From contig DATMRC010000112.1 of assembly GCA_035567075.1 (NCBI GenBank), positions 5,805 to 69,804 of the forward strand: a DNA stretch of 64,000 bases. Direction: 5' to 3'. This DNA is from Steroidobacteraceae bacterium (GTDB taxonomy: Bacteria; Pseudomonadota; Gammaproteobacteria; Steroidobacterales; Steroidobacteraceae). The notes beneath the pieces are model-generated. The model worked only from the letters and a program-made list of their open reading frames with translations, did no database searches and had not been told where the DNA came from. Shown here one piece after another: positions 52,883 to 54,790 of this stretch. The position numbers were made by a program, and so were the translations under genes. Each line of letters begins with the position of its first letter. Positions within the stretch are counted from its first letter, which is position 1.

Positions 52883-54790
52883 TCAATCTCGCAGCGCTAA
52901 CAACGGACCGATGAACTTCTCGTAGTTTCGCCAACGTCCCACGGAACCCTCAAAGATGGGTTGCTTTACTTGCCAAAAGCTTGCGGTTGCCACAAGACGG
53001 CTGGTCGCATTGAAATCCAGACACTGTTCATTCCACTCGAGACCCAGGAATTCCAGAATTTTTCGGGTCCATAACTCCTGATGGGCAACCAACTCGGCAT
53101 AGGGCACGTCCAGAATCGTTCCCGGCGGAAGCAGGGCCCGCCAATGCGCCATGACGCGCTGGTGTTGCTTGTAAAAGTGCGCCAGGTCGATTAATTCCGA
53201 GGCAAAGTCCATTTCCGCACTGAACTTTTGGAAATAACACGACAAACAAGTATCAACCGGGTCTCGCTGCATGTAGATGATGCGAGCCTTCGGGAAAACT
53301 GAATGAATGATGCCCAGATTGTCGAAATTGAGGGGTGTTTTGTCGACGATCCGCGGAGAATCACCGCACCGAGCCTCCAGGGCGCGCAGATAGGCATCGG
53401 CCAGTTTCTTCTTCGTTGATAGGTCGAGCAGCCCTTGCCGCACGGCGGCTCCATGTTCCTGTAGTGCGCGGCTCCAAAATCCTAATTCTCCGGCTCCTTT
53501 CACAGAGGGATGAGAGGCGATGATTTGTTCGACGAGCGATGTTCCCGAGCGCGGCATGCCGACCACGAAGATTGGCTTCATCGAATCAGACGCCGGCGAC
53601 ACGTTTGACATGGACTCGCGCGTATAGACGCGCATCAAGTCGTCGACAAATTGGGTACGCGCGAGTGGCTGATAGGCCGCGGCAGCGGTCTTCTGCAACT
53701 CGTTGGCGTCCTTGTAGCTCTTAAACGCCTGCGTGAAATCCTCTACGTCATCGTAATACTTTCCAATCGCAAAGCGCAGATCGGCCTCCTCCAGTGGCGA
53801 GATCCCGCTCGCGGCGATTTGCTGCGCACGCTCCAGCCAGGCGCCATCAGAAGGCGTCATCTTGCGTAAGCCGGCCATGCTCGCCCAAGCGCTCGCCATT
53901 CGAGGATTGGCGTGCAGCGCGCGATTAAACATTGCCTTTGCTTCATCAAAGCGGCCTTCTATTGCCGCCACGTGCCCCATCCCAAACAACGCGCCCGCAT
54001 TCTGTGGGGCGAGCTTGAGCGACTTCTTGAATTGATTCGTCGCATCGCCAAGCCGGCCAAGAAAAACGAAGGTCAGTCCAAGATTGTTCCGTGCGTCAGT
54101 ATGCTTCGGGTTTAGCTTAACGGCTCGTCGCAGCCAATTCTCCGCGTCTTGAAATTGCCCCTGTATTCGAAGCACTTCCCCAAGATTACTATGCGCAGAG
54201 GCGAAATCCGGGTGCAATCGCGTAGCTTCACGAAAGTGTTCCTCCGCCTCCGCGTACAGGCCAATTTTGACCAGTGCCGCCCCAAGATTATTCAGCGCAT
54301 CAGGATCGCGCGGATTGCGCTGAAGCAATTTCTGATAAATAGAAATTGCATCGGAATATGCGCCTTCAAACATGCACTTATTGCCATCGGTCAAGAGCTG
54401 GCGGACGGAGCGGGTCCGATCCGCATCCCCCGCCGCTGATTCGCCCACCAATGCCGAAGCGGCCTTGTTGCGGGCCAGATGCACCAGCACTCTCTCGGTC
54501 ACCTCATCGGCAACCTCCTTTTTTAATCCGTTTTCGAGCAACCGCCACTTGAACGAGTTGGCAAACTTTGCCTTCTTGTAGAAGTTCAGCTTAAGATTGT
54601 TTGAATCGGCCCGATCGAGAATCTGCTGCAATACATCGATCGGTTGATTGCGTACGCCTTTCTTGTTAGGGAGCGCAGCAGAACTCGAATGCACACTGCG
54701 GGTAAATTGATCCGCCAAGGCAGTGCCGAATTCGGTTGCTTCGCGCGCGTCGAACCAGTTACTCATCGCTGTTGGGTTTCCAAATAACAT
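52883..54790 (-). CDS. TPR-repeat protein fused to a sulfotransferase domain
   Basis: 635 aa. About six TPR units (residues ~140-350, e.g. AISIYQKLLQRNPRDPDALNNLGAA). The C-terminal domain carries the PAPS 5'-phosphosulfate loop VGMPRSGTSL and a 3'-phosphate motif MQRDPVDTCLS. GC is clearly lower than in core genes. Confidence 0.82.
   Translation of the reverse strand: MLFGNPTAMSNWFDAREATEFGTALADQFTRSVHSSSAALPNKKGVRNQPIDVLQQILDRADSNNLKLNFYKKAKFANSFKWRLLENGLKKEVADEVTERVLVHLARNKAASALVGESAAGDADRTRSVRQLLTDGNKCMFEGAYSDAISIYQKLLQRNPRDPDALNNLGAALVKIGLYAEAEEHFREATRLHPDFASAHSNLGEVLRIQGQFQDAENWLRRAVKLNPKHTDARNNLGLTFVFLGRLGDATNQFKKSLKLAPQNAGALFGMGHVAAIEGRFDEAKAMFNRALHANPRMASAWASMAGLRKMTPSDGAWLERAQQIAASGISPLEEADLRFAIGKYYDDVEDFTQAFKSYKDANELQKTAAAAYQPLARTQFVDDLMRVYTRESMSNVSPASDSMKPIFVVGMPRSGTSLVEQIIASHPSVKGAGELGFWSRALQEHGAAVRQGLLDLSTKKKLADAYLRALEARCGDSPRIVDKTPLNFDNLGIIHSVFPKARIIYMQRDPVDTCLSCYFQKFSAEMDFASELIDLAHFYKQHQRVMAHWRALLPPGTILDVPYAELVAHQELWTRKILEFLGLEWNEQCLDFNATSRLVATASFWQVKQPIFEGSVGRWRNYEKFIGPLLALRD

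Follow-up and report, generated by a model that had tools for sequence, protein, structure and literature searches.

The eukaryotic protein-tyrosine sulfotransferases (TPSTs) are type II membrane proteins of the Golgi lumen and contain no tetratricopeptide repeats (TPRs). A bacterial point of comparison is RaxST of Xanthomonas oryzae, which we take to lack TPRs and to be encoded together with its peptide substrate and the RaxA/B exporter. RaxST is cytoplasmic, depends on 3′-phosphoadenosine-5′-phosphosulfate (PAPS) and sulfates a polypeptide, on a tyrosine of RaxX, before export (PMC4646787, PMC4892823); it is by these traits that we liken it to the protein described below. Cytoplasmic modification of exported surface proteins has two further precedents among enzymes of glycosyltransferase family 41 (GT41): the Ogt of Synechococcus, which is cytoplasmic and carries no secretion signal, is required for glycosylation of PilA (PMC9306852), and HMW1C (GT41) modifies an adhesin (PMC3012730). 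In Pseudomonas aeruginosa, the TfpW/TfpX and TfpO/PilO islands place accessory modification genes beside the major pilin gene (bioRxiv 10.1101/2020.04.19.049825). Here we analyzed a gene for a TPR-containing sulfotransferase that likewise lies in a type IV pilus (pil) locus, between pilR and pilA, in a stretch of 64,000 nucleotides from a Steroidobacteraceae bacterium (contig DATMRC010000112.1, positions 5,805 to 69,804; hereafter the window, in whose coordinates all positions are given). The protein is probably a modifier dedicated to the pilus.

The open reading frame (ORF) and the parts of its product, in amino acids (aa), are as follows.

52883-54790, minus strand: TPR-sulfotransferase ORF, 635 aa as listed (ORF list, translation, Pfam)
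54446-54766, minus strand: N-terminal helical domain (N-domain), about aa 9-115, WF...LNFYKKAKFANSFKWRLLENG; matches no curated family
53870-54406, minus strand: TPR array, aa 129-307; Pfam TPR families at aa 136-310; AlphaFold2 (AF2) local confidence (pLDDT) >85
53606-53854, minus strand: helical linker after the TPR array, to about aa 395
52886-53584, minus strand: PAPS-type sulfotransferase domain, aa 403-635, with a PRSGTS 5′-phosphosulfate-binding (PSB) loop, the acidic residue of HPxxxGxGE, DKTP and the 3′-phosphate-binding motif RDPxDxxxS

The original prediction, made from the letters of the sequence, had described a cytoplasmic 635-aa protein with an unrecognised N-region of ~130 aa, about six TPRs and two sulfotransferase motifs, starting 113 nt after the pilR stop. 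Translation and searches of Pfam and NCBIfam bear out the ORF and the unassigned N-region, and both motifs are present (VVGMPRSGTSL, aa 409-419; RDPVDTCLS, aa 509-517). The repeat count is a fair one, with 6-7 TPR-like helix pairs in the AF2 model, and the cytoplasmic location agrees with hydropathy analysis, which gives no transmembrane segment and no signal peptide. The spacing of 113 nt is correct for the listed ATG at 54790. However, the starts of homologues and a conserved GGA-rich ribosome-binding site make M9 (54766) the more probable start, with a gap of 137 nt. The full-length AF2 model (pLDDT 78; predicted TM-score, pTM, 0.70) consists of the helical N-domain, the TPR pairs, a helical linker and an alpha/beta sulfotransferase domain. 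An identical protein is present on seven metagenome contigs with gene order unchanged. TPR-containing sulfotransferases are already annotated generically, with no assigned function in searchable sources.

The catalytic domain matches Sulfotransfer_3 (PF13469) over aa 406-588 with an E-value of 2.3e-45 (155.9 bits against a cutoff of 27), and the PSB loop (GMPRSGTSL) and 3′-phosphate motif (RDPVDTCLS) that mark the PAPS superfamily are both conserved. In an alignment of 20 homologues (57-83% identity), R414, S415, G416, T417, R509, D510, P511 and S517 are invariant. Invariance of catalytic residues down to 57% identity indicates that the enzyme is under selection as an active catalyst and, judged by these residues, is intact and maintained as such. 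When the domain was compared with the sequences of solved structures, TPSTs, human TPST1 and TPST2 (PDB 5wrj, 3ap1; also 8w5z) among them, were its sole significant relatives: they take the first seven places (E 2e-16 to 2.6e-10), a sulfotransferase of another kind first appears at E 3e-4, and the solved carbohydrate (heparan-sulfate) and cytosolic sulfotransferases have E > 1e-2. The TPST alignment pairs the PAPS loop PRSGT(S/T)L (R414), HP...GE (E435), (N/D)K(D/T)P (here DKTP, K484) and RD, all of them invariant in the 20 homologues. R414, E435 and K484 align with the residues that we take to be the catalytic Arg, Glu and Lys of TPST2. By closest sequence similarity, then, the catalytic domain is TPST-like.

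The nearest solved TPRs, by sequence and by fold, are those of OGT, SPINDLY (SPY) and consensus TPRs, with OGT and SPY leading the fold matches. The order of TPR superhelix, linker and catalytic domain is that of OGT and SPINDLY, and an N-terminal TPR superhelix followed by a C-terminal protein-acting transferase is also found in cyanobacterial Ogt and HMW1C-type enzymes. The likeness is one of architecture only: a Pfam search of the protein found no GT41 catalytic domain, with Sulfotransfer_3 standing in place of Glyco_transf_41. A full-length Foldseek search was dominated by TPR proteins and, as regards the catalytic domain, told us nothing that sequence comparison had not. The suggestion in the original prediction that the TPR array recognises a protein or peptide partner is plausible, given that TPSTs are the only near solved relatives, that the TPRs resemble those of OGT and that the N-domain family, described below, pairs with TPR-GT41 enzymes and pilins.

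To place the gene in its genomic context, one genome per species was scanned, which yielded 80 loci, mostly from Steroidobacteraceae and unclassified gammaproteobacterial metagenome-assembled genomes (MAGs). Thirty-seven are full-length matches that include the N-domain and 43 match the TPR and sulfotransferase parts only; all were searched with the window proteins by tblastn, and their ORFs were then clustered. A full-length sulfotransferase gene lies no more than two genes from a pil gene in 15 of about 36 independent genome loci. In all three further metagenome homologues found on long contigs (3/3), it lies between pilR and pilA. Altogether, 18 of about 39 independent loci are pil-adjacent, 11 of them with the sulfotransferase directly upstream of pilA, whereas the tblastn search found pil genes at none of the 43 paralogue loci without an N-domain. 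Co-occurrence with pil genes, which the original prediction had named as a check, is thus strongly positive for the N-domain subfamily and negative for its paralogues. The adjacency takes several forms: pilR, sulfotransferase, pilA, pilB (L006, L007, L012 and L018, in our numbering of loci); pilS, pilR, sulfotransferase, the 627-aa membrane protein described below, a UDP-galactopyranose-mutase (UGM)-like flavoprotein, pilA (L009, L015); and a sulfotransferase gene that lies on the opposite strand with pilR and pilS to either side (L030), follows pilD (L019) or diverges from pilA (L036). It has been re-formed in varied orders and orientations, including in deep branches and in a Burkholderiales MAG (L034, L036, L019), so that pil adjacency of the kind expected of a pilin-modification island is found across genomes and beyond close relatives. 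In a neighbor-joining tree, computed without bootstrap, the window gene belongs to a 12-member clade in which every member is pil-embedded. Taken together, the gene neighborhoods support a functional tie between the sulfotransferase gene and the type IV pilus locus. The original prediction had also linked the gene to the 'GT2/GT-C operon' that follows it in the window. This link is not conserved: in L006, L007 and L018 the module precedes pilR, and L009 and L015 lack it. Since the glycosyltransferase family 2 (GT2)/methyltransferase/EamA module moves or is absent, the stable association is with pilR and pilA and not with that operon.

The paralogues without an N-domain (L042-L079, L081-L085) form tandem arrays, with 89 genes in the 43 loci. 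Their commonest neighbor is a TonB-dependent receptor, and GntR regulators and enolase-superfamily and other catabolic-type enzymes are also found beside them. Among the full-length genes, one is duplicated in tandem (L022:8107-11917), and two copies are apparently frameshifted or split, with the N-domain in a separate ORF (L039:9980-11889 and L080:6505-8812).

The N-domain, which sets the pil-linked subfamily apart, offers a second line of evidence. No Pfam or NCBIfam model matches aa 1-130, and none in Pfam matches eight stand-alone homologues. The domain is rare: an exhaustive HMMER search of 1.84 billion proteins, with aa 9-130 as the query, recovered only 269 representatives, comprising fragments, full-length sulfotransferases and a family of stand-alone proteins of 97-101 aa. 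AF2 predicts 4-5 helices, for which Foldseek gave no significant fold match (best E-value 0.66). We collected loci of the stand-alone family from metagenomes, 79 in a systematic scan (L094-L172) in addition to earlier look-ups (L086-L090), and all 78 assessable copies in the scan are stand-alone proteins of ~99 aa. In 17 of 56 assessable loci, the small gene is followed on its own strand by a type IVa pilin gene whose start lies 210-320 nt away; among the loci of at least 5 kb, 19 of 37 contain a pilin, and of the 20 distinct intervals that separate N-domain and pilin genes, 18 carry a sigma54-like promoter. The stand-alone gene thereby shares with the fused sulfotransferase a position before a sigma54-driven pilA (14/14 loci in the lineage of the window). 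Large proteins encoded directly downstream of the stand-alone gene are TPR proteins in 24 of 25 cases, at least 14 of them with a GT41 (O-GlcNAc-transferase-like) domain. In L088 and L089, the small N-domain gene overlaps the start of a TPR-GT41 gene and follows two pilin genes and a PilB-like ATPase gene. Stand-alone loci are usually without pilR and pilS. GT41 partners also appear beside the fused form: a gene for a TPR protein with Glyco_transf_41 (OGT-like) lies immediately upstream of the sulfotransferase gene, two genes from pilA, in L032 (8136-9866, plus strand) and L011 (cluster c44).

Based on these neighbors, pilins on one side and TPR-GT41 enzymes on the other, the N-domain appears to be a pilin-linked partner of TPR-fused, protein-type transferases, and the window protein its sulfotransferase-fused version. 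The arrangement of N-domain, TPR enzyme and pilin is apparently undescribed. In one locus, L090, two copies of the N-domain gene each precede a TPR glycosyltransferase gene. In another, L092, an 797-aa fusion of TPRs and a methyltransferase is encoded within the pil locus, between glycan genes and pilR (2983-5376, plus strand), and has no match to the N-domain; it may represent a third catalytic head on the TPR theme. A 99-aa ORF in the same locus was considered as an N-domain homologue and rejected. We tentatively propose a wider class of cytoplasmic pilin modifiers, built from a shared adaptor of ~100 aa, a TPR array and interchangeable heads (GT41, sulfotransferase and possibly methyltransferase), whose reactions would include direct O-sulfation of pilin; at this breadth, the proposal is possible but somewhat doubtful.

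For the window protein itself, the reading we prefer is that of a cytoplasmic PAPS-dependent O-sulfotransferase that directly sulfates pilin, to which we would give a little less than an even chance. The helical N-domain and the OGT-like TPR superhelix would together recognise or recruit the target, and the TPST-like catalytic head would move sulfate onto it from PAPS. The favored target would be the major pilin, which would receive sulfate on a Tyr, Ser or Thr residue while still on the cytoplasmic side, either prior to its insertion into the membrane or in the course of it, much as TPR-GT41 enzymes (Ogt, HMW1C-type) modify surface proteins ahead of export. We favor pilin because the other catalytic heads found with this module are GT41 enzymes, which act on proteins, and because precedents for such cytoplasmic modification exist. 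The same synteny, and an architecture of TPST-like head and TPRs that suits a protein substrate, would also fit another cytoplasmic pilus or control protein, such as PilB, PilC, PilM, PilS or PilR, whose sulfation would tune assembly or signalling. Such a target would avoid the problem of topology discussed next, and the gene does lie beside pilR or pilS in several arrangements, including the one with a place between both. Yet pilA is the most constant neighbor of the fused enzyme and of the stand-alone N-domain, the loci of the latter usually do without pilR and pilS, and the literature we searched contains no earlier example of a bacterial cytoplasmic protein regulated by O-sulfation. We regard a target of this kind as highly unlikely.

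A number of observations weigh against pilin as the substrate, or against a role in the pilus altogether. The main objection is topological. Of a type IV prepilin, just a short leader faces the cytoplasm, and the globular domain comes to lie in the periplasm; a cytoplasmic enzyme would therefore have to act before translocation. The adjacent pilins contain no distinctive acceptor motif, their conserved tyrosines (AYQDYT; C-terminal Y-x-P-x-x-C) being generic type IVa features. The model of the N-domain is of low confidence (pLDDT about 64). The ranking of TPSTs may partly mirror the content of the PDB, since PF13469 includes non-protein sulfotransferases and few bacterial ones have been solved. 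With regard to gene context, nine orthologues form a separate clade between pgeF/ZIP and clpB, in a block of the order nadE-bamD-rluD-pgeF-[sulfotransferase]-clpB...aspS...mutS, and about ten more have unrelated neighbors. Many loci come from related MAGs, so that part of the adjacency is inherited and not independently selected. Lastly, glycan genes (for a UGM-like flavoprotein, GT-C-like proteins or GT2) are present at all pil-embedded loci whose flanks are long enough to show them, so synteny cannot separate a protein route from a glycan route.

Several of these points would equally fit a general TPR-sulfotransferase with an unrelated substrate, as is presumably the case for its many paralogues, that has come to lie, by shared ancestry and hitch-hiking, in a variable, island-prone region near sucCD-pilSR-pilA. 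The housekeeping block from pgeF to clpB adjoins sucCD-pilSR, and for the clade within it we rejected the presence of pilS or pilR within 10 kb as evidence in its own right, as it reflects regional synteny and not operon membership. The loci are mostly drawn from one family of MAGs, and the paralogue family is large and functionally unassigned. A distinct history is also suggested by base composition. The gene is the lowest-GC gene-sized stretch of the window, at 54.6% GC and with a GC content at third codon positions (GC3) of 0.62, against a window mean of 61.5% and a GC3 of 0.70-0.80 in neighboring genes; the original prediction had placed the lowest GC in this gene on the basis of 60-nt samples, and at that scale the claim fails, as the minimum (32%) lies near 40327 and at 44100-44220. 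Against a chance association stand the repeated re-creation of the pilA/pilR adjacency in many orders and orientations, the complete lack of pil linkage among the 43 paralogue loci, and the pilin adjacency of the separate N-domain gene in other lineages, which have different pilins and no pilR nearby. A sulfotransferase with no connection to the pilus is, in our judgment, quite improbable.

The glycan genes are best considered together with the remainder of the locus. On the minus strand, the order is sucC (beyond the window), pilS, four inserted genes, pilR, the sulfotransferase gene, a module running from GT2 to EamA, a plus-strand pair, pilA1, pilA2, pilB, pilC, pilD and coaE. The features, assigned by Pfam, NCBIfam and transmembrane prediction for the insertion and the glycan module, are as follows.

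62390-64000, minus strand: pilS histidine kinase (6TM_PilS, HisKA, HATPase_c; pre-annotated neighbors on identical contigs)
56335-62205, mixed strands: insertion of four genes between pilS and pilR, namely the next four
60463-62205, plus strand: ~580-aa polytopic protein
58793-60676, minus strand: 627-aa polytopic protein
57175-58824, minus strand: UDP-galactopyranose-mutase-like flavoprotein (NCBIfam PRK07208 family, 'hypothetical'; eukaryote-type UGM 4dsg, E 1.7e-12)
56335-57123, plus strand: GT2
54904-56238, minus strand: pilR-type sigma54 response regulator, 444 aa (Pfam Response_reg, Sigma54_activat and HTH_8; gene call)
54871-54886, minus strand: CRP/Vfr/Clp-like operator (AGTGAGCACTCTCTCA) in the gap between pilR and the sulfotransferase gene, a conserved block in aligned orthologous gaps that overlaps a weak hairpin
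47701-52781, minus strand: glycan module, tightly packed, namely the next four lines
51573-52781, minus strand: GT2 with GT2_TM_C, after a gap of 101 nt from the sulfotransferase gene
49501-51576, minus strand: 691-aa GT87-like membrane protein (GT87/PF09594 labels in homologues)
48752-49504 and 48076-48720, minus strand: two methyltransferases
47701-48072, minus strand: EamA-like protein of 123 aa
45408-47648, plus strand: AT3 and SGNH acyltransferase (Pfam)
44450-45250, plus strand: TylF-like methyltransferase (Pfam)
44189-44204, minus strand: sigma54 promoter of pilA1 (TGGCATAGCGCTTGCT), one mismatch to consensus, about 70 nt upstream of pilA1
43599-44120, minus strand: pilA1, type IVa pilin (Pfam N_methyl and Pilin; sequence)
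43541-43564, minus strand: strong terminator after pilA1 (terminator scan)
42923-43444, minus strand: pilA2, type IVa pilin in tandem with pilA1 and closely similar to it (Pfam N_methyl and Pilin)
40945-42690, minus strand: pilB (NCBIfam PilB equivalog score above cutoff)
39701-40921, minus strand: pilC (NCBIfam PilC match)
38745-39662, minus strand: pilD, at the end of the pilB-pilD region (38745-42690)

The product of pilA1 is a textbook type IVa prepilin by its sequence, and the orthologues of pilB, pilC and pilD in related loci carry T2SSE, T2SSF and Peptidase_A24. The regulator reaches the cutoff of no NCBIfam equivalog model. It is nevertheless 84-90% identical to the regulators encoded immediately after 6TM_PilS kinases in the related loci L009 and L091, and the name pilR is justified on these grounds; together with the near-consensus sigma54 promoter before pilA1, this makes the label used in the original prediction reasonable. 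The ORF of the regulator as mechanically called (54904-56979, minus strand) begins too far upstream, at a GTG, and is thereby lengthened to 691 aa; the gene itself starts at 56238, and the extension is occupied by the GT2 gene on the opposite strand. In L009 and L091, pilS and pilR are adjacent, in contrast to the window, where four genes split them. Genes for PAPS supply were not seen among 10 further ORFs scanned in the window, the annotation of which is not exhaustive.

The 691-aa protein has at least 7 predicted transmembrane segments and a KDMSWDLLNY motif. It has no Pfam match of its own, and its profile matched none of the PDB sequences; some homologues at 61-65% identity are labelled PF09594 or 'Glycosyltransferase family 87'. 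All three large unassigned proteins of the locus are polytopic, each with an acidic motif in the first predicted loop, and we infer from these features that they may be GT-C enzymes. The UGM-like flavoprotein suggests a furanose sugar in a pilin glycan, and the TylF-like methyltransferase and the AT3-SGNH acyltransferase suggest O-methylated and O-acetylated sugars. Across the pil-embedded loci, the UGM-like flavoprotein and the 627-aa membrane protein are the most constant of the glycan-type partners.

These genes allow a different route for sulfate, in which a nucleotide sugar or a polyprenyl-phosphate sugar (from the adjacent GT2) would be sulfated at the cytoplasmic face, flipped by the EamA-like protein and put on pilin in the periplasm by the GT87-like and other GT-C-like proteins. 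NodH and the mycobacterial Stf0 and Stf3, which use PAPS in the cytoplasm and act on glycan precursors, provide the model. This route removes the topology problem and accords with the place of the window gene at the head of the glycan module and with the glycan genes at all sufficiently flanked pil-embedded loci. Moreover, the sulfotransferase gene pairs with homologues of the 691-aa protein away from pilA too (L033, L028), and the basic, aromatic helix of the N-domain could, from its sequence, be a membrane-surface anchor. On the other hand, the catalytic domain is far nearer to TPSTs than to any solved carbohydrate sulfotransferase, and the partners of the N-domain elsewhere belong to GT41, a family that acts on proteins and not on lipid-linked sugars. 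In L088 and L089, the N-domain and TPR-GT41 genes lie beside pilins with no lipid-linked glycan genes in the 8 kb shown, and the GT2/GT-C module is not a constant neighbor. The characterised NodH, Stf0 and Stf3 presumably have neither TPRs nor the N-domain. We therefore consider sulfation of a glycan precursor, though the strongest competitor, unlikely, and retain direct sulfation of pilin as the preferred reading.

The expression of the gene was assessed from the 113-137 nt between it and pilR. The original prediction had noted in this gap only a 5-bp hairpin (AGAGT/ACTCT) without a U-run and considered read-through from pilR plausible. The hairpin is real, no intrinsic terminator was found in the gap, and the RNA of the gap folds no better than shuffled sequence (z = +0.40). 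In its strict form, in which the sulfotransferase gene has no promoter of its own and depends wholly on a single PilR-linked transcript that runs on from pilR into the glycosylation operon, read-through would also agree with the shortness of the gaps on both sides and with the consensus scan, which predicted no sigma70 promoter in the upstream gap. However, alignment of the gaps of seven loci revealed a conserved block, GTGA-N6-TC(A/T/G)C, that takes in part of this hairpin and resembles the CRP/Vfr/Clp operator TGTGA-N6-TCACA. Of 36 loci, 17 have a site of this type (≤2 mismatches) within 200 nt upstream of the sulfotransferase gene, where a background of 0.053 per 200 nt predicts about 1.9. 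The site usually lies 92-140 nt before the start codon and is kept where pilR is not the upstream neighbor (also in L091). The motif is not enriched over the window as a whole (19 observed, 17.5 expected), and the signal comes solely from positional conservation across loci. Because the operator is kept, including where pilR is not a neighbor, the sulfotransferase gene is predicted, from these conserved positions, to be transcribed probably from its own promoter under CRP/Vfr/Clp-type regulation. A convincing -10/-35 pair was not identified. Similar sites, with 2 mismatches each, lie in the pilA1-pilA2 (43479-43494) and pilA2-pilB (42763-42778 and 42795-42810) intergenic regions; the four pil-locus intergenic positions with CRP-like sites together make up <1% of the window. 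In related loci, moreover, the sulfotransferase gene is followed by pilA, which has a separate sigma54 promoter, and not by a GT2 operon. Thus, read-through is possible and may add to expression, while read-through as the sole source is distinctly unlikely.

A search for sigma54 promoters (≤2 mismatches) found none before the sulfotransferase gene (54767-54903) or before GT2 (52782-52882) and did find the pilA1 control, so direct activation by PilR is not indicated. An equivalent sigma54 element precedes pilA in 14 of 14 related loci. Of the two pilin genes in the window, only pilA1 has the near-consensus promoter; given this and the terminator after pilA1, pilA2 requires a separate promoter; a CRP-like site is present upstream of this gene.

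In the literature we searched, there is no report of pilin sulfation, of sulfated pilin or of a TPR-sulfotransferase, and related searches gave only the link between cyanobacterial Ogt and pilin; a sulfated pilin or pilin glycan would indeed be new, as the original prediction had stated. The setting of the sulfotransferase gene in a pil locus hints at an unreported sulfate modification of pili. Pilin modifications, glycans and phospho-forms among them, influence adhesion and aggregation as well as phage susceptibility and recognition by the immune system; sulfate does not figure among them in the literature searched. With the conserved sulfotransferase between pilR and pilA, a new pilus modification has a concrete candidate gene, and if the acceptor were a protein residue, bacterial protein sulfation would gain a second kind of system, RaxST/RaxX being the only one so far. 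The N-domain of ~100 aa is a second, independent lead: it marks TPR-fused enzymes beside sigma54-driven pilin genes in many metagenomic lineages, and could reveal by what means enzymes of the cytoplasm gain access to a substrate that is usually regarded as periplasmic.

Among the systems described at the outset, the TPSTs differ from the window protein, which is cytoplasmic in place of Golgi-lumenal and carries the N-domain and a TPR array. In contrast to RaxST, no genes for a peptide substrate or an exporter lie near it: Pfam matches and annotated neighbors include no small precursor peptide and no peptidase-containing ABC exporter, the neighbors being pilR, GT2, the GT87-like protein and methyltransferases. 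TPR-GT41 enzymes have a similar layout, but their head is a GT-B glycosyltransferase that uses a nucleotide sugar, where that of the window protein is a sulfotransferase with PAPS as donor. The neighborhood resembles the pilin glycosylation islands in its putative GT-C-type membrane transferases and in the furanose-type chemistry suggested by the UGM-like enzyme. To our knowledge, and in the literature searched, no sulfotransferase has been described in the islands of P. aeruginosa. The chemistry of those islands is periplasmic, whereas the window enzyme is cytoplasmic. The protein thus belongs to a known enzyme superfamily, but its architecture is new, as is its conserved pilus setting.

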